Positions 11,887 to 35,597 of a stretch of 37,849 nucleotides of DNA are shown piece after piece. The notes beneath the pieces were generated by a model. That model was not told where the DNA came from, ran no database searches, and saw only the letters and a program-made list of their open reading frames with translations. The position numbers and the translations under genes are program-made. Every line of letters starts with the position of its first letter. The stretch's first letter is position 1. Source of the stretch: Candidatus Woesearchaeota archaeon. GTDB taxonomy: Archaea > Nanobdellota > Nanobdellia > Pacearchaeales > GW2011-AR1. The stretch spans positions 1-37,849 of the forward strand of contig CAZBOY010000004.1 in the NCBI GenBank assembly GCA_964493655.1, written 5' to 3'.

Positions 11887-11937
11887 TTATTAAAAGTAAG
11901 GGGAAAAGCTTAAAAATACCTTTTTCTTTAATTTTTG

Positions 11938-12948
11938 ATGGTGTACATACATGTAAAAAGAATTGGGGATAAGAACTATTATACCTTAAGAATCTCGGTT
12001 AGAGAGGGTAATAAAGTTATAACAAAAGATTTGTGCAATCTTGGATCAGACATAACAAAAATAAATATAGACAATCTTGAAAATAAATATAAAAAAGAGA
12101 TTAGAAAATCCTATAAAACCATTAAAAAATTTTTAGATTCAAATTATTACCTTGAAAAAATTAAAAAATTAAAACTTAAGAGTGATGTTTATTTCAAAAA
12201 AGAACAACTCGAAAATATCGAGGCTATTCAGTTGCATTTTAATTCAAAATTTAAGAAATTAAATAAACTAACTCAAGAAGAAGCTTTTGAAAACTTTTTA
12301 ATAAATTTTGCAGTTAATAGCACCTCAATTGAAGGGAACACTATTACATTTAAGGAAGCTGAGCGACTTTTAAAAGAAGAGATTATACCTAAAAATAGGA
12401 CCTTAAGAGAGGTTTATGATTTGACAAACACAAAAAAAGTTTGGACATTTCTTCAGAAAGAAAAACCAAAAATTAATTTGAATTTAATTGAAGGAATTCA
12501 CGATAGATTATTAGAAAATATTGATAACAGAAAAGGGTTTAGAAATCATGATATAAAAATATTGGGCCAGCCATTCAAACCATCTCCTGCAAGATATGTT
12601 AGGGATGACTTGAAAATTTTATTAAATTGGTATCAAAAAAATAAGAAAAATTTCCACCCCCTTGCATTGATTGCTTTTTTTCATCATAAGTTTGAAAATA
12701 TCCATCCATTTTCAGATGGTAATGGCCGGACAGGAAGAATATTAATAAATTATATTCTTATCTCACTGAACTATCCCCCTTTGATTATTTCAAGAAGATT
12801 TAGAAAAGAATATTTAGATTCAATGAATCAGGCAGATAAGTCTCTAAATCAAAGTTTATTGAACACTGATTTAAAATCTTATGCAAAACTGTTGAATTTT
12901 ATTTATTCTCAATTTAAGTATTCTTATTGGGACTTATTTCTTTTTTGA
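11938..12948 (+). CDS. fic: Fic/DOC family protein (AMPylase-type) with an intramolecular inhibitory motif
   Basis: Fic core HPFSDGNGRTGR. An upstream STSIEG fits the (S/T)xxxE(G/N) inhibitory helix motif. TATA-like box about 24 nt upstream. Confidence 0.85.
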   Translation: MVYIHVKRIGDKNYYTLRISVREGNKVITKDLCNLGSDITKINIDNLENKYKKEIRKSYKTIKKFLDSNYYLEKIKKLKLKSDVYFKKEQLENIEAIQLHFNSKFKKLNKLTQEEAFENFLINFAVNSTSIEGNTITFKEAERLLKEEIIPKNRTLREVYDLTNTKKVWTFLQKEKPKINLNLIEGIHDRLLENIDNRKGFRNHDIKILGQPFKPSPARYVRDDLKILLNWYQKNKKNFHPLALIAFFHHKFENIHPFSDGNGRTGRILINYILISLNYPPLIISRRFRKEYLDSMNQADKSLNQSLLNTDLKSYAKLLNFIYSQFKYSYWDLFLF

Positions 12949-13037: not shown

Positions 13038-13319
13038 ATGGATGAAAACAAACTAAAGTCTAAGATTTTAAAGATACTTGTAAAGAATAATGTAGTTAGG
13101 GCTGGGCTTTTTGGTTCTTATGCTCGTGGCGAAGAGAATAAAAATAGTGATATTGATATTCTTATAGAATTTGAAGGAGATAAAAGTTTGCTTGATTTGG
13201 TTGGATTAAAAATTGCTTTAGAGGAAAGTTTGAAGAAGAAAGTCGATATCCTTACCTATAAGTCTCTGCACCATCTTCTTAAAAAAAGAATCTTAGAAGA
13301 AGAGGTAAAAATATTATGA
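13038..13319 (+). CDS. mntA: MNT-type nucleotidyltransferase antitoxin
   Basis: GLFGSYARGEENKNSDIDILIEF (the GS...DxD motif of the pol-beta NTase fold). It overlaps the downstream gene by 4 nt. Confidence 0.85.
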   Translation: MDENKLKSKILKILVKNNVVRAGLFGSYARGEENKNSDIDILIEFEGDKSLLDLVGLKIALEESLKKKVDILTYKSLHHLLKKRILEEEVKIL

Positions 13320-13654
13320 AAAAGGAAGATGATATCTATCTTAAACATGTTTTAGAATCTATTTCTGATATTGAAAAATCCCTTAAAAATATCTCTAAGG
13401 AAAACTTTTCTAAAAATAAAGATGTTCAAGATGCTATAATCAGGAGAATTGAAATAATTGGAGAAGCAATAAAAAATATTTCTGAGAAAACTAAAAAGAA
13501 GTATCCTGAAACTGAATGGAAGAAAATTGCAGGAACAAGAGATGTTTTAATTCATTCTTATTTTAGTGTTGATATTGATTTGGTTTGGGAAATTGTCCAA
13601 AGAGATTTACCTATACTAAAGAAGCAGATCAAGGATATATTAAACAAGATTTAA
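13316..13654 (+). CDS. hepT: HepT (DUF86) HEPN-type toxin
   Basis: Rx4HxY motif in RDVLIHSY. Size and pairing with the upstream MNT gene fit. Confidence 0.85.
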   Translation: MKKEDDIYLKHVLESISDIEKSLKNISKENFSKNKDVQDAIIRRIEIIGEAIKNISEKTKKKYPETEWKKIAGTRDVLIHSYFSVDIDLVWEIVQRDLPILKKQIKDILNKI

Positions 13655-20484: not shown

Positions 20485-22758
20485 ATGTTATTCAAAGAGG
20501 GAACACCGTTGTATTCTTATGAAACTATCCGGGAGAGTGGGGAGAATGTGATGTATATTAATTATCTTGGGGCGAGTTTTGTTCCGTCGCTGAGTGCGTA
20601 TCCAGAGGTGATGGCTCGGACAATTGATGCTCTTAGTGAAAACTTAGATATTTCAAGAATTGTTTTTGTTCAGCAGAGAAATTATAGTTATGATTTTGAA
20701 TTTGTAAAAATGCTTGCGGACATTGCAAATCTGTATAATTTTCTTACAAAACAGGAGAAGATTTTGTCGCAGGAAAAATTGCAGTTTGCTGCTGATAGGT
20801 TTAGTGAGATTTATAATATGATGAATTATTTGATTAGCACTCTTCTTAAACAAGATCCTGTGAAGGCTTACAGGGAGATTAAGAATTTGCTGTTTAAGGA
20901 AAAAGCAGATATTGGGCGCAGAGGTGGAAGTGAAACTTATGTGAGATTTTTGGAAAAATTAATTTCTTATTTTGATAATCTTGTGTTGATTAAAAAAGCG
21001 AAAACTTTGTTTGCGAATTATCCTGTTGGAGATAGAGAAATTTATGAGGGTATTTTTCGGGCAGATGTAATGCCTAATTTTACTTTTACAAGAATGGTGA
21101 GTGAAATACCCTCGGAAGTTGAGATTATTGATCAGTACGAGATTGCGAGTGGTGCTGATAAAAGTGTGGTTACAATTTACAAACAAAAAGATGCTGCGAA
21201 ACTTATTTATCATTTGTCTCCGCCGGAATATTCTCTTTCTGAAGATCATCATATGTTGCTGAATCTTGCACGAAATGTTCTTGTTGAACACCAGCCAAGA
21301 CAGGAGGAGTTTTCAGATTCAGAGAGGACGAGGCAGGTTTTTTTTAATGTTTCGCGTGATTTGGTGCAGGATTTGGCGAATACTAAAAATATTTCTTTGA
21401 CTTACCAGGAGTTGAATAATCTTGCGAATATTTTACTTAGGCATACAATTGGTTTTGGAGTTATTGAAGTTTTGTTACAAGATGAAAATCTTCAGGATAT
21501 TGTGATTAATGCTCCTGTTTCTCTTTCTAGGATTTTTGTAAAGCATCAGGAGTTTGATGAGTGTTCGACAAATCTTGTTGTGAGTCAGGAGGATGCAGAT
21601 TCGTGGGCAGCTAAATTTCGTATGCTTTCTGGAAGAGCGCTTGACGAGGCAAATCCGATTTTAGATACTTCTTTGAATTTAAAAGAAATTGATGCGAGAA
21701 TTGCAATTGTTCAGAGGCCTCTTTCTGCAGGCGGGCTTGCTTATGCTATTAGAAGACATAGAAGTAATCCTTGGACTTTGCCTTTGTTTATTAAAAATAA
21801 AATGCTTGATGGGTTGAGTGCAGGGTTGTTGAGTTTTTTAATTGATGGTGGAAGAACAATGCTTGTTGCTGGGACAAGAAGTTCTGGAAAGACGTCGCTG
21901 TTGGGGAGTTTGCTGTTTGAAATTATGACTAAGTTTAGGGTTATAACTGTTGAAGATACTCTTGAACTTCCTGTTGCTGATTTGAGAAAAGAAGGTTATG
22001 ATATTTTATCTATGAAAGTTAGAAGTGCACTTACTGGAGAATCAACAGAGGTGAGTGCTGAGGAGGGGATTAGGGCGAGTTTAAGATTAGGGGATTCTGC
22101 GTTGATTCTTGGAGAAATTAGAAGTGAAGAAGCAAAAGCTTTGTATGAAGCAATGAGGGTTGGTGCTCTTGCAAATGTTGTTGCAGGTACGATTCACGGT
22201 GCATCTCCTTATGCTGTTTTTGACAGGGTTGTGAATGATTTGAATGTTCCTGTAACTTCGTTTAAAGCAACTGATTGTATTGTTGTGTGTAATCCTATTA
22301 AATCTCCAGATGGTTTGCATTCGTGGAAAAGGGTTTTGCAAATTGCAGAGGTTAGGAAAAAATGGACTAAGGATCCCTTGCAAGAAGAGGGTTTTGTTAA
22401 TCTTATGAACTATGATGTTAATGCAGATAAACTTGTTCCAAGTGATGATTTGATTAATGGGGATTCTGAAATTATTAAGGCAATTGCTGCAAATGTCAAG
22501 GGGTGGGCAGGGGATTGGGATTCTGTTTGGGATAATATTTTGTTGAGACAGAAAATCAAAGAGGAACTTGTTGATTATGCAGAGAAAACAAAAAAACCAG
22601 AAATTTTAGAAGCCCCTTTTAATGTTAAATCAAATAATGTTTTCCACCATATTTCTGATAAAATTTCTGAGGAAGTTGGTTTGCCTATTTCTGAGAGGGT
22701 TTTCCCTGAATGGAAGAACTGGCTGGAGAGAGAAGCGAGAAGGTTATCTTTGGGTTAG
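20485..22758 (+). CDS. Type II/IV secretion-family (T2SSE; FlaI/PilB-like) assembly ATPase with a long N-terminal extension
   Basis: Walker A AGTRSSGKTS and Walker B-like ALILGEIRSEEA. The conserved ITVEDT and His-box-like GTIHG motifs are present. Length is 757 aa. Confidence 0.85.
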   Translation: MLFKEGTPLYSYETIRESGENVMYINYLGASFVPSLSAYPEVMARTIDALSENLDISRIVFVQQRNYSYDFEFVKMLADIANLYNFLTKQEKILSQEKLQFAADRFSEIYNMMNYLISTLLKQDPVKAYREIKNLLFKEKADIGRRGGSETYVRFLEKLISYFDNLVLIKKAKTLFANYPVGDREIYEGIFRADVMPNFTFTRMVSEIPSEVEIIDQYEIASGADKSVVTIYKQKDAAKLIYHLSPPEYSLSEDHHMLLNLARNVLVEHQPRQEEFSDSERTRQVFFNVSRDLVQDLANTKNISLTYQELNNLANILLRHTIGFGVIEVLLQDENLQDIVINAPVSLSRIFVKHQEFDECSTNLVVSQEDADSWAAKFRMLSGRALDEANPILDTSLNLKEIDARIAIVQRPLSAGGLAYAIRRHRSNPWTLPLFIKNKMLDGLSAGLLSFLIDGGRTMLVAGTRSSGKTSLLGSLLFEIMTKFRVITVEDTLELPVADLRKEGYDILSMKVRSALTGESTEVSAEEGIRASLRLGDSALILGEIRSEEAKALYEAMRVGALANVVAGTIHGASPYAVFDRVVNDLNVPVTSFKATDCIVVCNPIKSPDGLHSWKRVLQIAEVRKKWTKDPLQEEGFVNLMNYDVNADKLVPSDDLINGDSEIIKAIAANVKGWAGDWDSVWDNILLRQKIKEELVDYAEKTKKPEILEAPFNVKSNNVFHHISDKISEEVGLPISERVFPEWKNWLEREARRLSLG

Positions 22759-22791
22759 AACTTCGAGGAGTTTTTGAGGGAGTGGTTGTGA

Positions 22792-22947
22792 TTATTTTTT
22801 TGATTTTGCGATTCCTAATCTTAATCTAATTGCTTCAGAAATAAGTTCAGCTCTTGAGCGATAACCCTCTTTTGCTTTCTCTATAAATTCATCTATTTTC
22901 TTGGCAAGTTCTTCTGTTATTGAAATGTTGACATATTTTACTCTCAT
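22792..22947 (-). CDS. Ribbon-helix-helix (CopG-like) DNA-binding protein (51 aa, not in the ORF track)
   Basis: Read manually on the minus strand: MRVKYVNISITEELAKKIDEFIEKAKEGYRSRAELISEAIRLRLGIAKSKK. It follows the RHH pattern of a beta strand followed by two helices. Confidence 0.6.
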   Translation of the reverse strand: MRVKYVNISITEELAKKIDEFIEKAKEGYRSRAELISEAIRLRLGIAKSKK

Positions 22948-23004
22948 TTGCTTTCATTTACAGGTGAGCGAAAGACTTATATATCATTTTTCACGCATAG
23001 GTGA

Positions 23005-23232
23005 ATGATAAAAAATAAGAAAGCTGGAGCCGGGGCAGTAATTGTCATAATCCTTTTAATTTTATTAGCTATCGCTGCTTATTTTATTATTAAAGGTGGA
23101 GCTGTAGAACAAGCTATAGATCCCTGTGAAAGAGAGTTTCAAAATTGTAATCATGGTTGTGGTGAAGGAATACTAAGTAGTGTTTGTAAAGAAAAATGCT
23201 CATATGATTATAGGAAGTGTCAGAATGGGTAA
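23005..23232 (+). CDS. Small Cys-rich protein with a class III-like signal/anchor
   Basis: MIKNKKAGAGAVIVIILLILLAIAAYFII is followed by an 8-Cys ectodomain. TATA-like box 25 nt upstream. Confidence 0.5.
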   Translation: MIKNKKAGAGAVIVIILLILLAIAAYFIIKGGAVEQAIDPCEREFQNCNHGCGEGILSSVCKEKCSYDYRKCQNG

Positions 23233-23464
23233 AAAGAAAAACCCATTAGAGATTATTGGTATAATCTTAATTATTTTAGGGGTATTAATAATTTTGTCTG
23301 CATTTCCTTTATTTCAACAAACATTTTTTCCGGGAATTGAAACTCTTGCTGAAAAAGTTCCTTCAATAAGTGCTACTAGAATAATCATAGGTTTTGTAAT
23401 ATCTATTTTAGGATTAGTTACTTATTTAGGAGAAAAAGGATTAAAAATTTTGATAGGAAAATAA
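23225..23464 (+). CDS. Small 2-TM membrane protein
   Basis: MGKKKNPLEIIGIILIILGVLIILSAF... It overlaps the upstream gene by 8 nt. Confidence 0.45.
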   Translation: MGKKKNPLEIIGIILIILGVLIILSAFPLFQQTFFPGIETLAEKVPSISATRIIIGFVISILGLVTYLGEKGLKILIGK

Positions 23465-23466
23465 AA

Positions 23467-24033
23467 ATGAAAAATAAACACTTTTGGTATATCCTCGGGG
23501 GGATTGTGATTGCAACTTTAATTTTATTAATTATTTTTGCTAATGTAAACAAACAACCCAATTGTAAAATTATTCAAACTCCTTATGAAGAACAAGAATC
23601 ATATATTGATTATGAAACTTATAACGAACAAAATTGTGAAGAATCTCCTTTAACTTATACGACTCGTCCAGGAGATATTAGGTTACAGGGAGGAAGATGG
23701 GGGGACGATTCCTGTTCAAAAAATGGACTTAACCAATGTCTTATTGTTTGGGATGTTATCATTAAAAATACTGATACACGGGGTGGGGAATTCTATATGT
23801 ATTGTATCTATTCAGATGGCTCAACTTATAAGGCAACGAGACCTTCTTGGATTGATCCTGGAGAAGAAGAATCTATGCAATGTTTTAATACTTTTTCTTC
23901 AGGAGAACTTTACATACAAGATACAAAAGTATTTCCCCCAAATAAGGAAGAATGTTTAACTACCTCTCAACAAAGACCTATTACAAAATACAGAACAATT
24001 ACTAAGTATAAAGAAGAAACCGTTTGTGATTAA
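23467..24033 (+). CDS. N-terminally anchored extracellular protein
   Basis: 188 aa with a single N-terminal TM (WYILGGIVIATLILLIIFA) and a Cys-containing ectodomain. Confidence 0.5.
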   Translation: MKNKHFWYILGGIVIATLILLIIFANVNKQPNCKIIQTPYEEQESYIDYETYNEQNCEESPLTYTTRPGDIRLQGGRWGDDSCSKNGLNQCLIVWDVIIKNTDTRGGEFYMYCIYSDGSTYKATRPSWIDPGEEESMQCFNTFSSGELYIQDTKVFPPNKEECLTTSQQRPITKYRTITKYKEETVCD

Positions 24034-24034
24034 A

Positions 24035-24301
24035 ATGACTTTTAAGAAAGGATTTTGGCATAGATATTATAAAGCAAAAAGATTATCTGGAGAAAAATTT
24101 TTCAAAAATAGATTTAAAAATATTGAGATGGTTATTTTTGCTTTCTTAGTAGCAATTGTTCTCTCTTTTGCAGATGATTTATTTATCTTTAATAGAGGAC
24201 TAAATCCCTCAACTAAAACAAAATTTTTGGTTGTAATTTTTATAATATCTGTTCAATTATATAGACATTTTTTATATAAGAAATATTATCCTAAGGTTTA
24301 A
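24035..24301 (+). CDS. Small basic membrane protein
   Basis: Basic N-terminus followed by two hydrophobic helices. Confidence 0.4.
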   Translation: MTFKKGFWHRYYKAKRLSGEKFFKNRFKNIEMVIFAFLVAIVLSFADDLFIFNRGLNPSTKTKFLVVIFIISVQLYRHFLYKKYYPKV

Positions 24302-24304
24302 ATT

Positions 24305-24410
24305 TGTCCCAAAAACAAGACTTAAGTCCAAAAAATGAGACAAGATTAAGAGAAAGGTTTAAATAATCTTTTTGTCTCAAAAAAGGGACTTAAGTCTATA
24401 AAATGGGACA
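24305..24410. promoter_or_regulatory. Two copies of a 38-bp composite palindrome TGTCyC-N8-GACTTAAGTC-N8-GrGACA (candidate operator)
   Basis: The perfect 10-bp palindrome GACTTAAGTC occurs at 24319-24328 and 24387-24396. The second unit overlaps the ATG (24403) of the HTH-NTase gene. The TATA-like GGTTTAAATAAT lies between the two units. Confidence 0.55.
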
Positions 24411-24900
24411 GAATGTTGATAAGATTTTAGAGGTTTTTTACGAAAATCCTGGAAAGAGTTTTACTGTTCGAGAGTTGACTAAACTGACTAAAGTTCCTCG
24501 GGCAACTCTTCATAAAAAACTTTTGGATTTGAAAAAACAGAGATTGATTACAAAGGAGAACAAAGCAGAGAGTAATTTGTTGTTTGAAGCAAAGAAAATT
24601 AATTATTTTATCGAAAAAGTTATTGATTCTGGTTTGATGGATGAACTAATTAAAAATCTTAATCCTTCTGCGATTGTTTTGTTTGGGGGGATTAGGAAAG
24701 GAGAATCTGACAAAGAAAGTGATATTGATTTATTTGTTGAGAGTTCGATTGAAAAGGAATTAGATTTGAGTAATTTTGAGAAAAAACTGAAACATAAGAT
24801 TGATTTGTTTGTTAAACCAAGTATTAAGAATTTTCATGAGGGTTTATTTAATAATATTCTTAATGGGATTAAATTATATGGGAGTATTAAGATAAAATGA
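24403..24900 (+). CDS. wHTH-fused nucleotidyltransferase (MNT-like antitoxin)
   Basis: N-terminal wHTH (FTVRELTKLTKVPRATLHKKLLDLKKQRLI). NTase motif in VLFGGIRKGESDKESDIDLFVE. Confidence 0.7.
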   Translation: MGQNVDKILEVFYENPGKSFTVRELTKLTKVPRATLHKKLLDLKKQRLITKENKAESNLLFEAKKINYFIEKVIDSGLMDELIKNLNPSAIVLFGGIRKGESDKESDIDLFVESSIEKELDLSNFEKKLKHKIDLFVKPSIKNFHEGLFNNILNGIKLYGSIKIK

Positions 24901-25322
24901 ATTTGATGCCTTGGGAATTATGTGAAAGAGATTTTATTAAAATTGTAAAGAGGGATGATGAACGAATTAAGACAATAATCAAGATGGCTTTGAAGAGGTT
25001 AGATAAAATTAAGAGATATAAAATGGAAGATGAGATTTCTTTTATTGTAGAAGATTATTATGAGATTATAAAAGAACTTTTAGTGGCTTATTTACTTAAA
25101 AATGGATTGAGATCAAAAAACCATCAGTGTTTGATTAGTTATTTTTATAAGAAAAATCCTCAATATGAAAGAGAGGTCCAGATTATTTCTCAGATGAGTT
25201 ATTTTAGGAACCGATTGAATTATTATGGGGATGCTATTCCAAAAAAGTTTTATGAAACTCATGAGAAAGAGTTTAAGAAGATAATTAAATTGTTATTTGG
25301 GGTTTTAGAGGTGAAGGGATGA
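24897..25322 (+). CDS. HEPN-domain protein (toxin partner)
   Basis: It overlaps the NTase gene by 4 nt. The protein is all-helical and has the YFRNRLNYYG motif typical of HEPN partners of NTases. Confidence 0.6.
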   Translation: MNLMPWELCERDFIKIVKRDDERIKTIIKMALKRLDKIKRYKMEDEISFIVEDYYEIIKELLVAYLLKNGLRSKNHQCLISYFYKKNPQYEREVQIISQMSYFRNRLNYYGDAIPKKFYETHEKEFKKIIKLLFGVLEVKG

Positions 25323-25345
25323 ATATAGAAAAAAAGAGTATATAC

Positions 25346-25432
25346 AAAACCAAAAGAAGTCCCGCCCAAAAGCTCCTTTTAGTCGCTCCCACCCTATTTG
25401 TCGAAGCAAAGCTTCGATGTTCTTTTGGTTTT
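25346..25432. repeat. Structured inverted repeat: 13-bp outer stem enclosing an inner hairpin
   Basis: AAAACCAAAAGAA (25346-25358) pairs with TTCTTTTGGTTTT (25420-25432). The inner hairpin is TCGAAGC-AAA-GCTTCGA (25401-25417). The CCCGCCC block is also seen at 32780. Confidence 0.6.
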
Positions 25433-25460
25433 AAGGTAATTAAATTTTCTTTTTTACAAA

Positions 25461-27641
25461 ATGGTTAGTACAGAAGACATAATGAAAAAATATGGGGCAA
25501 GGATTGAGTCGCAGATGAACTCTTATTCTCCGAGCCAGAAGTTTAGTCAGAGTTATGAAAAATTTAGGGCAAGTATGATTCCAGAATTTACTCGTTATGA
25601 AAAATGGTGCAAGGCACTGGGGAATCTTTTTCACATGAAAGTTGCTGAGAAAGATAGGCTTGTTGTTCAGAGGCAGATTGAAATTGCTCATCTTAATTTA
25701 ATACCTTCAGAGGTTTTGGTTTTTGGAGTTGTTGTTTTATTTTTGAGTTTATTTGGCGGGCTTTTAGCAGTTGTTGCTGGGTGGTTGCTTTTTCTTGAAA
25801 CTCCCACTTGGGCTAATTTTCCTATTGGACTTAGTTTTTTGATTATTATTATTTCTATGTTTTTGTTTTACTATGCTTACAAAGCTCCACAGAGACTTGC
25901 ACAGCAGTGGAGATTGAAAGCGTCGTCGCAGATGGTTCCTGCAATTTTGTACATTGTAATTTATATGAAGCATACCTCAAATTTTGAAAAAGCTGTTTCA
26001 TTTGCCTCAGAACATTTGCCAGATCCACTTGGTTTGGATTTTAGGAAAATTTTCTGGGATGTTGAAGTTGGTAGATTTTCTTCAATTAAAGATAGTGTTG
26101 ATAATTATTTAGAAACTTGGAGAGATTATAGTATTGAATTTATTGAGGCGTTTCATTTGATTGAGAGTAGTTTATATGAGCCGTCTGAGGAGAGAAGGGT
26201 TGTTGTGTTGGAGAAATCTCTTCAGGTTATTCTCGACGGGGTTTATGATAAAATGCTTAAGTATACTCACAATGTTAAGTCGCCTCTTACAAATCTTTAT
26301 ATGCTTGGAATTGTTTTGCCGACGCTGTCTCTTGCGATTCTTCCTCTTGCTTCAACAATGTTACAAGGTATGATAAAATGGTATCATGTTTTGCTTTTGT
26401 TTAATATTCTTGTTCCTTTTTTAGTTCTTTATTTGACGACTAATGTTATGATGGAACGACCGGGTGGTTATGGTGAGACAAGTTTGCTTGAGAAAAATCC
26501 TCTTTATCCAAAATATAAAAGCCGGAAGCCTTATATGATTGGAATCTTGATTGCGATTCCTTTTTTGATTCTTGGATTTCTCCCTTTGCTTTGGGCTTAT
26601 ACTGATTTGCCTTTGTGGATGGGGATGCAGAGAGATTATTCCTGGTCTTCAATAGGATTTGGATTTTTAGGAGAGTCTGGAATTTTTGGGATTATGGAAA
26701 CTACTGATGGAATTAAAGGGCCTTTTGGAATGCTTTCTCTTTTGTTGAGTTTGCTTGTTCCTCTTTCTATTGCTATGATTTTTATTATTGCTTATCATGT
26801 CAAAACAAAAGATTTGATTAAGTCGAGGGAGATGTATAAAGAAGTTGAGAATGAGTTTACAAGTTCTCTTTTCCAGTTGGGGAATAGGCTTGGCGACGGC
26901 ACTCCTGCTGAAATTGCTTTTGCTAAAGTTGCAGGTTCATCAAAGGGGACTGCGACTGAAGGATTTTTTAGATTAGTTAATCAAAATATTCAGCAACTTG
27001 GGATGTCTCTGAATGATGCGTTGTTTAATCCTAAACGAGGAGCTGTTATTTTTTACCCTTCTGAATTAATTGCAACTTCAATGAAGATTTTAGTTGAGAG
27101 TGTTAAAAAAGGTTTGAAGGTTGCTGCGAGAAGTTTGATGTCAATTTCAGAATATGTTAAGAATATAAAAAAGATTAATGCGCGGTTGAATGATTTGCTT
27201 GCAGATATTATTTCTGATATGAAATCGAACATGGTTTTTTTAGCTCCGATGCTGTCGGGAATTATTATTGGACTTGCGGGGATGATTACTGCGATTCTTT
27301 CTAGTTTGTCTGCGATGTTTGCATCTGGTGGTTTATCTGCCGAGGGTGTTGATGCAATTGCTGGAAGTGGCGGGATTGAATCTCTTTTAGGAATTTTTGA
27401 TATAACTCAGATGATTCCTCCTTACTGGCTTCAGATTGTTGTTGGTTTTTATTTAATTGAAATTGTGTTTATTCTTACTTCAACTCTTGTTACAATTCGT
27501 TCTGGAAGAGATAAACTTGCGACAACTTATGAGATTGGGAGAAATCTAAAAACCTCGATTATACTTTATGTGATTATTGCTCTTGGTTCGATTATTGGAC
27601 TTGGTTTGATTGGTGCTGTGGCTTTGCAGGGGTTGGTCTGA
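25461..27641 (+). CDS. Polytopic membrane platform protein (FlaJ/TadC/PilC-like), putative
   Basis: 726 aa with two clusters of TM helices separated by soluble helical domains. It lies in a locus with a T2SSE ATPase, an A24 peptidase and pilins. The assignment rests on architecture and context, not on a recognised motif. Confidence 0.6.
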   Translation: MVSTEDIMKKYGARIESQMNSYSPSQKFSQSYEKFRASMIPEFTRYEKWCKALGNLFHMKVAEKDRLVVQRQIEIAHLNLIPSEVLVFGVVVLFLSLFGGLLAVVAGWLLFLETPTWANFPIGLSFLIIIISMFLFYYAYKAPQRLAQQWRLKASSQMVPAILYIVIYMKHTSNFEKAVSFASEHLPDPLGLDFRKIFWDVEVGRFSSIKDSVDNYLETWRDYSIEFIEAFHLIESSLYEPSEERRVVVLEKSLQVILDGVYDKMLKYTHNVKSPLTNLYMLGIVLPTLSLAILPLASTMLQGMIKWYHVLLLFNILVPFLVLYLTTNVMMERPGGYGETSLLEKNPLYPKYKSRKPYMIGILIAIPFLILGFLPLLWAYTDLPLWMGMQRDYSWSSIGFGFLGESGIFGIMETTDGIKGPFGMLSLLLSLLVPLSIAMIFIIAYHVKTKDLIKSREMYKEVENEFTSSLFQLGNRLGDGTPAEIAFAKVAGSSKGTATEGFFRLVNQNIQQLGMSLNDALFNPKRGAVIFYPSELIATSMKILVESVKKGLKVAARSLMSISEYVKNIKKINARLNDLLADIISDMKSNMVFLAPMLSGIIIGLAGMITAILSSLSAMFASGGLSAEGVDAIAGSGGIESLLGIFDITQMIPPYWLQIVVGFYLIEIVFILTSTLVTIRSGRDKLATTYEIGRNLKTSIILYVIIALGSIIGLGLIGAVALQGLV

Positions 27642-31148: not shown

Positions 31149-31216
31149 TTTAATGGGGTTAAGAAAATCACTTTTACGATGGTGGAACCTTCACAAATTA
31201 AGAATAAACAAAATAT

Positions 31217-31248
31217 GTGCCGAAGGCACCAATAGGTCGCTTTGCGAC
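31217..31248 (-). repeat. Repeat family B, copy B4 (inverted)
   Basis: GTGCC-GAAG-GCAC (31217-31229) and GTCGC-TTT-GCGAC (31236-31248). The reverse complement reproduces the B1 order: TTT/AAA-loop hairpin, then UUCG-loop hairpin. Confidence 0.6.
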
Positions 31249-31367
31249 TTAGTATAATAATTAAAATTTAGTAATGCCCTATTCTCTATAAATTTTTTAT
31301 TAGTTCTTGATTTTTTTTGTGATTCTTTTTTAGTTAAGTTTATTAATATCTCTTGGATTAATTATTT

Positions 31368-32285
31368 ATGGACAAAAAAGTAAATTTCTCTTATGAGAAA
31401 TTTTCATGTTTTCCAAAACCTCTGCGGTTTTGTAAAAGAGGAAGTGAGAAGTATTATATTCTTATTTCAATTATCCTAGGGATTATGATTTTAGCTTTGT
31501 CTTTGTTTTATATTTTTCACGAGTTTTTTACAAGTGAAGAGTTGGATTGGGAGAGTTGTCGGCAGAGTATTGTTCTGAGGAATACAATGCCTACTGCAAG
31601 CAGACTTGCGACAGTTAAAATTGAACAGCTAAAAAACCAATTTCCATTAAAATGTAAGACTCAGGTTATAAACCTTGATTGGGACGATAAGAAAGGTTCT
31701 GATGGGGATGATAATTATAAACAAAATATAGATTTTTTCATAAAGACTATTGCAGATAATATGGCTCAGTGTTGGTCTCTTGTTGGGGAAGGAAAATATA
31801 ATATTTTTCCCTCGAACATTATTACACAAAAAAAGAATTGCATAATTTGTGCAAGAATACATTTTAGTGAAGAAGCTATAAAAAAAATCTCCCCTGATTC
31901 AACCTCTAAATATACTCCCCTATTTATTAGGGAATATTTAGCTACTCATGATATTAATGGAAATTTGCTTTCAACTAATGAAATTAATGAGTTTATGAAT
32001 TTTGAAAAGATAAGTAAGAATAGTCTTGCAAATTTTTTACGTTATAGTACGTCGGATTTTTTTATATTTTTAGATGATAATAATTGGGAATCTGGTAAAT
32101 ATGGTATGAGATTTGCAATTAGCCCTTTAGATGGAGATATTTTTATTGGAAGCTATTTTTATACTAATAATAATGTTGAATTGGCATGGCCCCCTGTTGT
32201 TAAATACTCTTATGCCTATCCTTTTTTTGCACAAGTTGGAAAAGATGATATTAGTTCGTGTAGTATAGAATCAATCCCAGCCTAA
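31368..32285 (+). CDS. Pilin-like protein with the extended conserved leader SCFPKPLRFCKRG
   Basis: MDKKVNFSYEKFSCFPKPLRFCKRG is followed by SEKYYILISIILGIMILALSLFYIF. TATA-like box 24 nt upstream. Confidence 0.65.
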   Translation: MDKKVNFSYEKFSCFPKPLRFCKRGSEKYYILISIILGIMILALSLFYIFHEFFTSEELDWESCRQSIVLRNTMPTASRLATVKIEQLKNQFPLKCKTQVINLDWDDKKGSDGDDNYKQNIDFFIKTIADNMAQCWSLVGEGKYNIFPSNIITQKKNCIICARIHFSEEAIKKISPDSTSKYTPLFIREYLATHDINGNLLSTNEINEFMNFEKISKNSLANFLRYSTSDFFIFLDDNNWESGKYGMRFAISPLDGDIFIGSYFYTNNNVELAWPPVVKYSYAYPFFAQVGKDDISSCSIESIPA

Positions 32286-32288
32286 AAA

Positions 32289-32705
32289 ATGAAAAACAAA
32301 AACCACTTAGATGCCTCAAAAAGATACTCCTGCTTCCCAAAACCTCTGCGGTTTTGCAAAAGAGGCGACATAGTATATCAGACAATTACTCATCTTATTT
32401 TGATAACTCTTATTTTTGCTATTTTCTTTCTTGCTGCAACAAGCAAGGTTACATCTAAGGTTGTGAAGCAACAGGTTCTGGAAAAGCAGACTGCCTTGTT
32501 GATTGATGCTGCTGATAAGGGGATGACTTTTATTATTGATAAGACTTATCTTGAGGGTGGAACAATTGGGAATATTGAATTAAAACAAGGCAGGGTTTTT
32601 GTTTATATTGCTGGACAGGGGTTTAGTAAAGGATATCCTTATTTTTCTCGTTATGATGTGAGTTTGGTAAAAGAGGAGGACAGATATCTGATAAAAATAG
32701 GATGA
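32289..32705 (+). CDS. Pilin-like protein with the extended conserved leader SCFPKPLRFCKRG
   Basis: MKNKNHLDASKRYSCFPKPLRFCKRG is followed by DIVYQTITHLILITLIFAIFFLAA. Confidence 0.65.
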   Translation: MKNKNHLDASKRYSCFPKPLRFCKRGDIVYQTITHLILITLIFAIFFLAATSKVTSKVVKQQVLEKQTALLIDAADKGMTFIIDKTYLEGGTIGNIELKQGRVFVYIAGQGFSKGYPYFSRYDVSLVKEEDRYLIKIG

Positions 32706-32845
32706 GAAAAAATAGTTGTTTTAAGAATTGGAAATTTTTTGATTTTTGCAGATACCCACTAAATTCGACTTTGTCGAGACCCGCCCTTCTTCCACACCAC
32801 TGCCACCCCAGAAGTTTGTCAAAAATAAAAATTTCCAATAAGTTT

Positions 32846-33436
32846 ATGAAAATAAAAGGGAAAAAAGCAGTTGCAGGGGAAATGATTTTAACACTTTACA
32901 GAATAGTTTTAGTTTCTATTATTGCTGTTTTTGTTCTTGGTTTTGCTTCTTTTGCATATGATTTTTATATTGAAGCACGAGATATTGAAGCTGGAATTTT
33001 AGCAAAACAAATTGTGGATTGTCTCGCTCCTGAGGGTTCTGTTAATTTGCTTTCTTTAGTTGGAAACGAAAATAAAATTTTAGATTATTGTGGATTTAAA
33101 AATATGGATAGGATTTATGCAAAGGTTTTGATTTTAGATGGTGCTGAAAATGAAATAGAAAAATTAGAACAAGGAGATTCAGGGGCTTTGTGGATGCTTG
33201 AGATTTATAAAGAAGAGAGTGAGGCACAGGCAAAAAATACCCCTGAATATGGTCCAAAGTATCTTCCGGATAAATATGGGGTTCCTAAAGAACAAACAGA
33301 GAATATCAAAAAATATGTTCCAGGACATTTTGTTTCTGAAAAATATGGGGTTTATGAGGTAGCGATTATTGATGGAAAGAATCCTGCATATGGTGGGGAA
33401 TTAAAAGTGGAGGTTTTTGTTGGACATGAATTTTAA
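32846..33436 (+). CDS. Pilin-like protein with a class III-like signal
   Basis: MKIKGKKAVAGEMILTLYRIVLVSIIAVFVLGF. The ORF is open from 32702, so a longer form is possible (see findings). Confidence 0.55.
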   Translation: MKIKGKKAVAGEMILTLYRIVLVSIIAVFVLGFASFAYDFYIEARDIEAGILAKQIVDCLAPEGSVNLLSLVGNENKILDYCGFKNMDRIYAKVLILDGAENEIEKLEQGDSGALWMLEIYKEESEAQAKNTPEYGPKYLPDKYGVPKEQTENIKKYVPGHFVSEKYGVYEVAIIDGKNPAYGGELKVEVFVGHEF

Positions 33437-33731
33437 ATCATTTTCGAAGAAGGCAGTTGTAGGAGCTTCTATAGCTACGATAATTGTAACAATTGCAATT
33501 GTTTTATTATTAGTTGTTTATGCAATTCTTGGGGTAATTGTTAAGAACACTCGTGGGGCTCCTAAAGAATTTAATTCTCAATTAAAAGAAAGCGAGAAGC
33601 TTGAGATAGAATTTAATAATTATTTTTCTAATTTTAAGAAATTGACAAAAGCGAGAAAAATGATTTGGCTTGAAAATACTAATGTTGATGCAGCTTTACA
33701 AATCACTGGATGGGGGAAAAATGAAAAATAA
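33426..33731 (+). CDS. Small pilin-like protein
   Basis: MNFKSFSKKAVVGASIATIIVTIAIVLLLVVYAILG. It overlaps both neighbouring genes by about 11 nt. Confidence 0.5.
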   Translation: MNFKSFSKKAVVGASIATIIVTIAIVLLLVVYAILGVIVKNTRGAPKEFNSQLKESEKLEIEFNNYFSNFKKLTKARKMIWLENTNVDAALQITGWGKNEK

Positions 33732-34299
33732 AAAAGCAAATTTCTCTTATGAGAAATTTTCATGTTTTCCAAAACCTTTGCGGTTTTGTAAACGCGGACA
33801 GTTTTTTGCACTTTATTTGTTTGTCTTAACTTTGTTTATGTGTGGTTTGTCTTTTGTTATTTATTCTATTCAACAAGAAGATATGGAGAATACAATTGTG
33901 TCTCCTATGCCTGTGCTTCAACTTCAAGATGAACAAGAGCTTTTTGAAATTTCCGAGGGTGTTTTAATTAAAAATTCTGTTTGTGAGTTTAAATATAGAG
34001 ATTATAATCAAGATTTATCTGAGGAGATTAAACAACAAATATTGTATAGGTATTATGGAGAATTATTTGCTTTTTTATTTGCAGATACTTATAAGACTTC
34101 CACAGATGGAGGCGATTTAGAATTATTAGCAAGTTTCTATAGTGTTAGTCAATCTGGAAAAAATGTTGTTGTTAAAAGAAGAGCAAAGATTAACAGAAAT
34201 TTAATTCCCTTAGAAATAAAAGGAAAGAATAATTTTCCTGTAAAACTTGAATGGGTTTTTGAAAAAACTTATAATATAAATTTGAAGGATTGTTCTTAA
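33721..34299 (+). CDS. Pilin-like protein with the extended conserved leader SCFPKPLRFCKRG
   Basis: MKNKKANFSYEKFSCFPKPLRFCKRG is followed by QFFALYLFVLTLFMCGLSFVIYSI. Confidence 0.65.
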   Translation: MKNKKANFSYEKFSCFPKPLRFCKRGQFFALYLFVLTLFMCGLSFVIYSIQQEDMENTIVSPMPVLQLQDEQELFEISEGVLIKNSVCEFKYRDYNQDLSEEIKQQILYRYYGELFAFLFADTYKTSTDGGDLELLASFYSVSQSGKNVVVKRRAKINRNLIPLEIKGKNNFPVKLEWVFEKTYNINLKDCS

Positions 34300-34300
34300 G

Positions 34301-34435
34301 ATGTCTGATTATGTAGAAGTTGGAAGGAGAAAAACCAAAGGCGATAAAAAAGCTAAGGTGCGGTATAAGATTTACAAGAAAGGCGGGAAGTATCGGAGCA
34401 AAAATGTTGACGAGGGGAAGGGTAAAAAGAAATAA
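34301..34435 (+). CDS. Small Lys-rich basic protein (44 aa, not in the ORF track)
   Basis: MSDYVEVGRRKTKGDKKAKVRYKIYKKGGKYRSKNVDEGKGKKK. The ATG is 2 nt after the upstream stop. Confidence 0.3.
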   Translation: MSDYVEVGRRKTKGDKKAKVRYKIYKKGGKYRSKNVDEGKGKKK

Positions 34436-34575: not shown

Positions 34576-34761
34576 ATGCAAGAAGAATTTTTTGATTGGA
34601 GTATTATTGTTTTGAATTATTTAATATTTGTATTGATTTTTATTAGAACCTTGAGGACTGATTGTTTTAATACTTTTGATTTAAGCGTTACATTTATAGG
34701 GCTTGGTGCATCTATTTTATTATTAATAATTAAACTAATCAACAAAAAAAGAGAAAAATGA
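34576..34761 (+). CDS. Small 2-TM membrane protein
   Basis: MQEEFFDWSIIVLNYLIFVLIFIRT...ILLLIIKLINKKREK. It overlaps the peptidase gene by 4 nt. Confidence 0.4.
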   Translation: MQEEFFDWSIIVLNYLIFVLIFIRTLRTDCFNTFDLSVTFIGLGASILLLIIKLINKKREK

Positions 34762-35597
34762 ATTTTTTATTTTGGATGTTTTTAGCTGGAATTGTTGTTG
34801 CGAGTTTGCAGGATTTGAAAAGGAGAGAGGTAGATAATTGGTTGAATTATCTTTTGCTTATTGGTGGGGCTGGTTTTTTAATTTTTGATTCTATTTTTAA
34901 TATGGATTTTAATATTGTCTTAATTGGATTATTTTGCTTTGGGATTATGTTTGTTCTTGGAAATTTGTTTTATTATGGGCGGGTGTTTGCAGGGGGGGAT
35001 GCAAAATTGTTGATTGCAATGTTTGCTCTTTTTGTAGGTTCTTCTTTGATTGCGAGTTTGCAGAACATTGGGATTTTTATAATATTTCTTTTGTTTGGGG
35101 GAGCGGTGTGGGGTGGGGTTTATGGGGGTGGGCTTGTTTTTCTTAATTTTAAGAAATTTACTAATCAATTAAAAATAGAATTTAGAAAATATAAGAGATA
35201 TTATTCTATTTTTTTATTTATCTTTGTTCTGCTTGTGGTTCTTATTTTTCTTGATAATCTTTTTTTGGTATTAGTTTTGTTTTATATTTTGTTTATTTTG
35301 CTTTTTATTTTTGCAAAAGCACTTGAAAATTCTGCAATGCTCCGGCGGGTTAATTCTCGGGATTTACGCGAGGGAGATTGGATTGTTGAAGATGTGCGAA
35401 TTGGAAAGAGAATTGTTAAGTCAAATTGGGAAGGGTTGACTAAAAAAGATTTGGAATTATTAAGGGGGGGGCACAAAAATGTTTTAGTTAAGGAAGGGAT
35501 TCCTTTTGTTCCTGGATTTTTAATTGCTCTTATTTGTTATGGGTTTTTAGCAGAGAGTTTGTTAGAGATTGTTAAGGAATTCTTGGCTTTAATTTAG
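34758..35597 (+). CDS. A24-family prepilin/preflagellin aspartic peptidase (PibD/FlaK/EppA-like)
   Basis: The first catalytic Asp context is VASLQDLKRREVDNW and the second is FAGGDAKLLIAMF (GxGDxK). It is polytopic, with a soluble insert before the last TM. Confidence 0.8.
   Translation: MNFLFWMFLAGIVVASLQDLKRREVDNWLNYLLLIGGAGFLIFDSIFNMDFNIVLIGLFCFGIMFVLGNLFYYGRVFAGGDAKLLIAMFALFVGSSLIASLQNIGIFIIFLLFGGAVWGGVYGGGLVFLNFKKFTNQLKIEFRKYKRYYSIFLFIFVLLVVLIFLDNLFLVLVLFYILFILLFIFAKALENSAMLRRVNSRDLREGDWIVEDVRIGKRIVKSNWEGLTKKDLELLRGGHKNVLVKEGIPFVPGFLIALICYGFLAESLLEIVKEFLALI

Follow-up and report, generated by a model that had tools for sequence, protein, structure and literature searches.

A translated, hairpin-bearing cassette in the predicted leaders of some pilin genes of Woesearchaeota-type archaea

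RESULTS

Three pilin-like genes share a leader cassette

The window, by which we mean the whole 37,849-nt stretch analyzed here (contig CAZBOY010000004.1 of a Candidatus Woesearchaeota archaeon), is AT-rich (33% GC) and contains a type IV filament locus in which three pilin-like genes share a short N-terminal coding cassette, the subject of this report (Table 1). The open reading frames (ORFs) of proteins 1, 2, and 3 each read (F/Y)SCFPKPLRFCKRG with a hydrophobic stretch directly after it, and a back-translated CFPKPLRFCKRG pattern has exactly three sites in the window (31407-31441, 32331-32365, and 33763-33797), all on the plus strand, with none expected from 100 shuffles; the first-pass annotation of this DNA, which described three ORFs sharing a motif directly before a hydrophobic helix, is therefore confirmed. 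The entire gene order recurs in four syntenic Woesearchaeota loci (L015, L019, L020, and L021), running from the ATPase and membrane protein through pilins, protein 1, protein 2, two pilins, and protein 3 to a small basic ORF, and continuing with the peptidase, HIT, EF-1beta, and an RPA-like gene. The A24 peptidase holds the same position in L015, L019, and L020, has a weak match to the FlaK_Arch profile, and is the presumed enzyme for leader removal; its closest relatives among GTDB representatives are mostly labelled Candidatus Woesearchaeota (30 to 35% identity). At least eight further window ORFs have short class III-type N termini, such as MKFKRG/DFSIGELV (28542) and MKNKRG/FLVSKE (30281), the slash here and below marking the predicted cleavage site.

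Table 1. Features of the window, and cassette-bearing N termini of proteins found elsewhere
Feature	Positions	Strand	Remarks
T2SSE-type ATPase	20485-22758	+	Pfam T2SSE, E = 5.5e-14
Large polytopic membrane protein in the platform-protein position	25461-27641	+	Synteny with L019, L020, and L021
Core pilus machinery	20485-27641	+	ATPase and membrane protein, upstream of the cassette genes
Pilin-like protein 1, 305 aa	31368-32285	+	Predicted cleavage after G25, mature N terminus SEKYYILISIILG
Leader cassette copy 1 (KKVNFSYEKFSCFPKPLRFCKRG)	31374-31442	+	In gene 31368-32285; model R1, 98.6 bits
Copy 1 hairpins	H1 31382-31390/31395-31403; H2 31414-31420/31426-31432	+	Fold prediction
Pilin-like protein 2, 138 aa	32289-32705	+	Predicted cleavage after G26
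Leader cassette copy 2	32298-32366	+	In gene 32289-32705; model R1, 58.3 bits
Copy 2 hairpin	H2 32338-32344/32350-32356	+	First half diverged (NHLDASKRY), no hairpin 1
Possible degenerate fourth leader extension	32702-32845	+	In-frame ORF upstream of pilin gene 32846-33436, reads MRKNSCFKNWKFFDFCR...
Pilin-like protein 3, 192 aa	33721-34299	+	Predicted cleavage after G26
Leader cassette copy 3	33730-33798	+	In gene 33721-34299; model R1, 93.9 bits
Copy 3 hairpins	H1 33738-33746/33751-33759; H2 33770-33776/33782-33788	+	Fold prediction
A24 prepilin (class III signal) peptidase	34758-35597	+	Pfam Peptidase_A24, E = 3.1e-8, above the curated cut-off
P0028			N terminus MLGLNKKANFSNEKFVCFPKPLRFCKRG/VSIIVAY
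P0030			N terminus MLNKKVNFSDKKFSYFPKSLRFCKRA/QFYILAV
P0034			N terminus MLGIFKRGKKVNFFKKKFSCFPKSLRFCKKG/DLSIGELV
P0035			N terminus MKIKKNKANFQRNFLCFPKPLRFCKKA/DIVYQTL
P0037			N terminus MNNKKVNFSKEKFSCFPETLSLSKRG/ASRHLEM

The 39-nt motif has eight variable nucleotide sites among the three window copies, and all eight are synonymous; simulation gives P ~3e-6 for such an outcome with eight random substitutions and P = 7e-4 for the five changes separating copy 2 from copy 1. The peptide is thus under purifying selection in this genome, in agreement with the annotation's observation that every difference is synonymous and its argument for selection on the peptide. Copies 1 and 3, described there as nearly identical, share 94% of positions over 69 nt. 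Both predicted hairpins are also present, H1 (9 bp) in copies 1 and 3 (31382-31403 and 33738-33759; -8.4 kcal/mol, local z = -4.3) and H2 (7 bp) in all three (31414-31432, 32338-32356, and 33770-33788; about -7 kcal/mol, local z = -2.4 to -4.1). A close orthologue of protein 2, in L022, retains the full cassette. Seven contigs from other samples match the window at 100% identity, and none of them is rearranged.

The cassette lies in the predicted prepilin leader

Class III signals have a charged residue at -2, Gly, Ala, or Ser at -1, and a cleavage site ahead of the hydrophobic H-domain (PMC4371748). The three window proteins and the six cassette copies found elsewhere (see below) all read K-[KR]-[GA] followed by about 20 hydrophobic residues, and the cognate machinery, an A24 peptidase and a T2SSE ATPase, is encoded in the locus. 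All 25 homologues of protein 1 (34 to 52% identity) begin M..K[KR]G/[SDA]EKYYIIISLILG, that is, M..K[KR]G/[SDA]EKYY, with leaders of roughly 5 to 13 residues where the N terminus is complete. Orthologues of protein 2 begin MGKKG/ELMYDV, MKRGKRA/KLLYQ, MIKMNKKA/DLVHQ, and MKSKKHKRG/ELMHE, and those of protein 3 begin MIMNITGKRG/QIFSAY, MRNKKA/QIFAAY, MKNKRA/TFFMLY, and MIGRKFNDRA/QFFSMY. In the four syntenic loci, proteins 1, 2, and 3 all have short-leadered orthologues, whose K/R-G/A aligns exactly with the window KRG. Because of this alignment the motif is recognized as an insertion of about 20 residues in a predicted cleavable leader, which bears out the earlier placement of the motif in a class III leader immediately before the cleavage site, and we infer that cleavage follows the window KRG. 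The cassette leaders are 25 to 31 residues long compared with 5 to 13 in the orthologues, leader length not being a strict class III criterion, and they are positively charged, the leader of copy 1 carrying seven K/R and two D/E residues.

An AlphaFold2 (AF2) model of protein 1 (predicted local distance difference test score [pLDDT] of 71) has residues 1 to 25 disordered and a helix at 26 to 54, and no fold in the PDB matches the model with E < 1. Neither the TIGR02537 arch_flag_Nterm profile nor the UpsA profile matches the window proteins; P0028 and L024b, two of the copies from elsewhere, give sub-threshold matches only (15 to 16 bits with a cut-off of 20, and for UpsA 26 bits with a cut-off of 130), and these begin at K-R-G, outside the cassette. 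As a separate observation, nearly every member of the protein 1 family (31368-32285 and P0002-P0026) has a C terminus ending C-x-x-[EW]-[GST]-[IV]-P-A, and several cysteines are conserved.

Cassette copies in other genomes are present or absent between orthologues

A profile built from the three leaders and run with HMMER on 1.84 billion representative proteins recovered five further copies on pilin-like proteins (P0028, P0030, P0034, P0035, and P0037; Table 1), and a sixth copy outside the window, L024b, lies at 2917 in L024 beside another copy. All are N terminal with a hydrophobic helix directly after the cassette. The scan of leaders outside the window that the first-pass annotation had called for was thus productive for pilin-like proteins; the orthologues at the four syntenic loci lack the motif. 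Several other matches were rejected: P0029, P0031, P0033, P0036, and P0042 are translated repeat arrays (SMGPRFCKRGN...LQWGHAFVSVET) that look like clustered regularly interspaced short palindromic repeat (CRISPR) arrays, and P0032 is a 62-aa tandem repeat containing EKFSCFPKHLAF. The RFCKRG repeat-array matches are artefacts unrelated to the cassette, since their scores are inflated by summing over repeats.

The carriers belong to different pilin families, to two kinds of pilus locus, and to other metagenomes, and the genes shared by the carrier organisms have 64 to 85% DNA identity. Presence and absence at orthologous sites is seen twice. L023 and L024 (at 1728) carry close orthologues (VSIIVAYVLLIVIAI...) that differ by a clean 60-nt indel, L023 reading MLGLNK[KANFSNEKFVCFPKPLRFCK]RG/VSIIVAY (insert KANFS...RFCK) and L024 reading MLGLNKRG/VSIIVAY. 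In L027 the cassette is on an orthologue of window gene 28542, which is itself without a cassette; here the old KRG still stands upstream of the cassette and a new KKG comes after it, a duplication-like arrangement (AAAAGAGGT / AAAAAAGGG) found in L027 only. The insertion point is always within an A-run ahead of AGAGG-like codons, and all nine copies are on the sense strand, in the same frame, and begin 2 to 8 codons after the start codon. The cassette is therefore a discrete in-frame module of about 60 nt that some pilin genes carry and their orthologues lack, and among a handful of related Woesearchaeota-type genomes it is found on pilin families unrelated to one another.

Protein 2 and its L022 orthologue are 82% identical in the first 80 codons of the mature part (84.5% over 271 nt by BLAST). 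Their cassettes share the second half, with three synonymous and no nonsynonymous differences and a proportion of synonymous differences (pS) of 0.45, compared with 0.48 in the mature part, and the first halves are unrelated. We also note that the P0030 locus (L024/L025/L026), from Joint Genome Institute (JGI) sample 3300005645, is a second pilin cluster with two cassette copies; a window-identical contig comes from the same sample, and the cluster is also present in NCBI on a 20.7-kb contig. This locus may share a genome with the window, in which case the copy number would be at least five per genome.

Both hairpins are maintained by compensatory substitutions

The alignment of the nine DNA copies (A5), from about five or six organisms, has standard pairs in 93.7% of pair cells, a fraction that does not exceed 62.7% once the partners are shifted by 1 to 3 columns. 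Changes on both sides of a stem occur at five pairs (eight cells), and these values were reached by 0 to 1 of 500 shuffles; RNAalifold, unprompted, predicts the identical two helices. Several of the compensations alter the peptide. L027 has TCT to TTT (S to F) together with GAG to AAG (E to K), L024a and L027 have CCT to TCT (P to S) together with CGG to AGA, and L028, whose peptide reads FPETLSLSKRG, nonetheless retains the two helices, three of its pairs being compensated. Both hairpins are thus upheld by compensatory substitutions, some of them nonsynonymous. Covariation, which the first-pass annotation proposed to examine with R-scape, is supported for both hairpins by the pair shuffles and by RNAalifold, and of the options that the annotation listed, a combined peptide/RNA element is the best supported.

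The cassette shares two features with structured RNAs, a secondary structure backed by covariation and a constant position and strand relative to the downstream gene. An operator for a dimeric regulator was considered for the palindromes and rejected, since covariation favors base pairing over repeated half-sites; paired changes in the half-sites would be the signature of base pairing rather than of a protein-bound palindrome. No Rfam 15 family matches at its gathering threshold in the window, with only chance-level matches at E <= 5 in 31200-34400, and a tRNA scan found nothing. An intrinsic terminator was rejected as the T-runs reach T4 only, as was a frameshift signal (A AAA AAG plus hairpin), for which conservation of the A-run is lacking, the spacer falls short, and either shifted frame runs straight into a stop codon.

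The peptide is less uniformly conserved than the hairpins

The peptide encoded by the cassette, ..K[AV]NFSxEKFxCFPK[PS]LRFCK[KR][GA], is basic and aromatic and invariably ends in a valid K-[KR]-[GA] site. F15, P16, L19, and K23 are invariant in the nine copies, Leu19 being kept through the codons CTG, TTG, and TTA. Pairwise ratios of nonsynonymous to synonymous differences (pN/pS) over the cassette mostly fall at about 0.2 to 0.6, a few pairs being higher. Between L024a and L027 there are six nonsynonymous and no synonymous changes, six residues distinguish the pair of copies in L024, and the H1 loop codon varies freely, encoding Y, N, D, S, or K. The peptide is, on these comparisons, also constrained, less uniformly so than the hairpins. 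The motif described as invariant in the first-pass annotation is so within this genome, but homologous copies elsewhere vary at most positions, including both cysteines: the first is Tyr in P0030 and the second is Ser in P0037, so the Cys-x7-Cys box taken to be fixed is not conserved. Nor is the motif, which had been suggested as a recognition or sorting tag, needed for recognition by the A24 peptidase, since at least eight pilin-like ORFs of the same locus, and the orthologues in the four syntenic loci, occur without it alongside a homologous peptidase.

Two other coding possibilities were rejected. A downstream start at the Leu19 codon (CTG/TTG) conflicts with TTA in two copies and with three synonymous changes upstream, and a +1-frame mini-ORF (MFSKTSAVL, then stop) is not conserved in window copy 2, L024a, or L028.

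Searches for further copies

A covariance model of the cassette (R1), searched over both strands of the window and 24 loci (293 kb), finds only the known copies at 58 to 99 bits, all in sense-strand prepilin leaders, with the next best match at 27.6 bits. A degenerate DNA pattern gave zero or bacterial chance matches among GTDB species representatives (at most 27 bits with the model), three chance matches outside ORFs in JGI metagenome contigs, and zero in IMG/VR. The JGI scan missed the motif-carrying contig L018 (Ga0077109_1015640), so absence there is weak evidence. A 5.8-billion-protein word index scored nothing for the leader profiles, even for the window's own proteins, and is not evidence of absence. 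As far as the 293 kb and the pattern scans show, the many copies in diverse contexts that are a hallmark of Rickettsia-type palindromic elements are not seen. Literature searches, together with a text search of one recent preprint on archaeal type IV filaments (10.64898/2026.04.22.720090), found nothing similar.

Other features of the locus

Pilin gene 2 and the pilin gene after it, which overlap by ATGA in relatives, are here about 140 nt apart (32705-32845). The spacer has a GC-rich core (CGAGACCCGCCCTTCTTCCACACCACTGCCACCCCAGAAG) flanked by an inverted repeat (TTGGAAATTTTT / AAAAATTTCCAA), no Rfam match, and a fold z of -1.0. The in-frame ORF at 32702 has its start in an ATGA shared with the gene 2 stop codon, and its peptide echoes the SCF...FC of the cassette; the pattern SCF.{3,12}FC[KR] in six frames of 255 kb has five matches, namely, the three cassettes, this site, and one that is stop-interrupted. 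We rejected it as a fourth cassette: the likeness is at the peptide level only, the model gives 3 to 8 bits, and it is not C/D-box-RNA-like.

The very basic ORF of 43 to 47 aa (..RRKTKGDKK..YKKGGKYRS..) that comes after the last pilin gene and before the A24 peptidase (window 34301-34435, L015 2964-3107, and L019 8434-8565) matches no Pfam family and occurs with or without the cassette. Reading of translations alone also points to two nucleotidyltransferase/HEPN-like toxin-antitoxin pairs in the window (13038-13654 and 24403-25322), the second within the pilus locus, with the ATPase gene on one side and the membrane-protein gene on the other, and to a Fic-motif ORF (HPFSDGNGRTGR; 11935-12948).

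DISCUSSION

We are highly confident of the description of the cassette as a translated, in-frame, hairpin-bearing module in the prepilin n-region that is present or absent between orthologues. Its interpretation is more tentative, and we favor, as a serious possibility rather than a probable one, that it is a transferable, dual-coded leader module, a structured nucleic-acid element placed in disposable coding space. The organization of the locus is consistent with such an arrangement. A TTTAT(T/A)AA box (TTTATTAAT) is centered about 25 nt upstream of the ATG at 31368 (31339-31348), and the same box, with a similar spacer after it, stands at other pilin operon heads (upstream of 28542, at about 1046-1055 in L024, and at about 4975-4984 in L027), which suggests a common promoter type. 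This distance, taken with the usual archaeal TATA-to-start spacing, suggests leaderless transcripts, and the internal pilin genes overlap or abut their neighbors; leaderless or overlapping genes would have no untranslated region (UTR) in which to carry a cis element. The leader, by contrast, is predicted to be removed by the A24 peptidase, and about 20 extra codons would then cost the mature pilin nothing, since they are cut off with it.

The cassette would on this model be a cis-acting nucleic-acid element housed in the disposable leader. Hairpins at +15 to +65 nt from the start codon would adjust translation initiation on selected pilin mRNAs and/or the stability of these mRNAs, with the encoded peptide held mainly to being a competent, cleavable n-region and perhaps having an additional peptide-level role. 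A cis-acting role in initiation or stability is the reading that we prefer, though it is less likely than not; it is favored by the putatively leaderless genes, the tolerant leader, and the most stable 5' folds, the cassette genes standing 1st, 2nd, and 8th among the 45 genes of the window in the folding energy of the first 80 nt.

Several observations weigh against this interpretation. Ribosomes in translation would melt hairpins in a coding sequence, and hairpin 1 has been lost in copy 2. There are only nine copies, some of their compensatory states are shared by descent, and the one U-G wobble and one C-A mismatch do not discriminate mRNA from a single-stranded DNA strand. Both the pure synonymous change among the window copies and the four invariant residues are more than a passenger peptide needs, and the movement of exactly 60 nt between unrelated genes whose flanks have almost no homology is easier to account for by a transposition-like mechanism than by gene conversion.

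Alternatively, the working part would be the peptide, as an extended cytoplasmic n-region by which some pilins are tagged for recognition, sorting, or timing by the peptidase, ATPase, platform protein, a chaperone, the membrane surface, or a similar partner; the hairpins would then be incidental or of use only when the cassette is copied. The uniformly synonymous window changes would fit such a tag, as would the second half shared by window copy 2 and L022 with its pS equal to that of the mature part, the invariant residues, with Leu19 kept through three codons, and the K-[KR]-[GA] end that is always kept. Across genomes, however, the peptide drifts, as between L024a and L027, and the two copies on the L024 contig also differ; nonsynonymous changes are tolerated where base pairing is restored, the orthologues and eight neighboring pilins do without the tag in the presence of a homologous peptidase, and the five compensated stem pairs are left unexplained. 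We therefore consider a peptide tag unlikely. The same can be said more firmly of a miniature selfish palindromic element that inserts in frame and survives in the cut-off leader, its hairpins serving single-stranded DNA mobilization, and this reading stays alive because the precise 60-nt transfer, between unrelated genes and different organisms, has almost none of the flanking homology that gene conversion would use. The clean presence and absence between close orthologues also speaks for it, as do the constant insertion in an A-run before AGAGG-like codons, the KRG and KKG on either side of the L027 cassette, which resemble a 9-nt target duplication, and the identity of cassettes in nonorthologous genes (about 85%) compared with that of host genes (70 to 76%) in the same two organisms; in-frame palindromic elements are, moreover, known (review PMC10969869; PMC1779305). 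Yet all nine copies share orientation, frame, and position, although the reverse orientation also has one open frame. None lies in intergenic DNA or other genes across the 293 kb, only three occur in 37.8 kb, the two hairpins are unlike each other with no terminal inverted repeats, and the window has no transposase. The purifying signal at the peptide level and the vertical inheritance of the second half indicated by the copy 2-L022 comparison also run counter to a selfish element.

Two further proposals fare much worse. The first-pass annotation raised a metal-binding or disulfide checkpoint based on Cys-x7-Cys, and cysteines at fixed spacing are indeed present in all three window copies and in seven of nine overall; however, each is replaced in one of the remaining copies, two cysteines make half of a usual metal site, and by class III signal topology the leader faces the reducing cytoplasm. 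Since the Cys-x7-Cys is not conserved, with both cysteines replaceable among the nine copies, a checkpoint is very improbable. Recombination between direct repeats, with shuffling or deletion of pilin genes, would draw on three 69-nt repeats in the same orientation within 2.4 kb and on the near identity of copies 1 and 3, but the four syntenic loci keep one gene order whether or not cassettes are present, the seven window-identical contigs from different samples include no rearranged variant, and there is no recombinase in the window, making this the least probable of the readings considered here.

Returning to the dual-coded leader module, it is doubtful, though conceivable, that the cassette is a new kind of element that propagates from gene to gene specifically into prepilin leaders, either as a portable riboregulator or as a mobile element specialized for signal peptides, and that the released basic peptide might bind its own hairpins. 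If the hairpins do act on expression, organisms with leaderless and overlapping genes would have a way of adding cis-regulation inside a peptide that is later removed; if the cassette is instead a mobile element, it would be an unusually small one with a striking niche. In either case a single 60-nt stretch appears to encode both a peptide and base pairing, with amino acid changes accepted when the stem is restored. The cassette also sets apart some of the pilins of uncultured DPANN archaea, organisms in which pili are believed to serve in contact with the host, and model R1 can be used across metagenomes.

The cassette has partial counterparts in several known systems. Its leaders resemble the archaeal class III signals of the PibD/FlaK/EppA-type A24 peptidases in having a charged n-region, K/R at -2, G/A at -1, and a helix of about 20 residues (PMC4371748), and their locus likewise encodes the T2SSE ATPase and the A24 peptidase. 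They differ from known class III signals by a shared, structured insertion of about 20 residues: the extra residues form a conserved block common to unrelated pilins, and the DNA of this block keeps two hairpins by covariation. Bacterial type IVb pilins such as TcpA and BfpA have leaders of about 15 to 30 residues. The cassette-bearing proteins are like these in having a long basic leader ahead of a hydrophobic helix and in its removal, here predicted, by a prepilin peptidase, but the long type IVb leader is a family-wide trait, whereas the insertion described here is present or absent between orthologues. We know of no cassette common to unrelated type IVb pilins and of no conserved RNA or DNA hairpins in them.

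Rickettsia palindromic elements and repeats resembling MITEs (miniature inverted-repeat transposable elements) likewise consist of short palindromic DNA, in frame and translated, variably present, and with the hairpin kept; they are about 100 to 150 bp or longer and occur in many copies, in many gene families and in intergenic DNA (PMC1779305, PMC10969869, PMC2996958). The cassette, unlike them, is 60 nt long, has so far been found in prepilin leaders only, keeps one frame and orientation, and shows selection at the peptide level. A further parallel is with early stem-loops such as the E. coli ompA 5' hairpin, which sets mRNA stability or translation initiation. The cassette is predicted to form similarly stable hairpins in the first ~70 nt of the transcript, although it does so inside translated sequence whose peptide is removed afterwards, is a module that can pass from gene to gene, and belongs to no Rfam family. 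It is the dual coding, together with the unusual niche, that sets the cassette apart from these systems.

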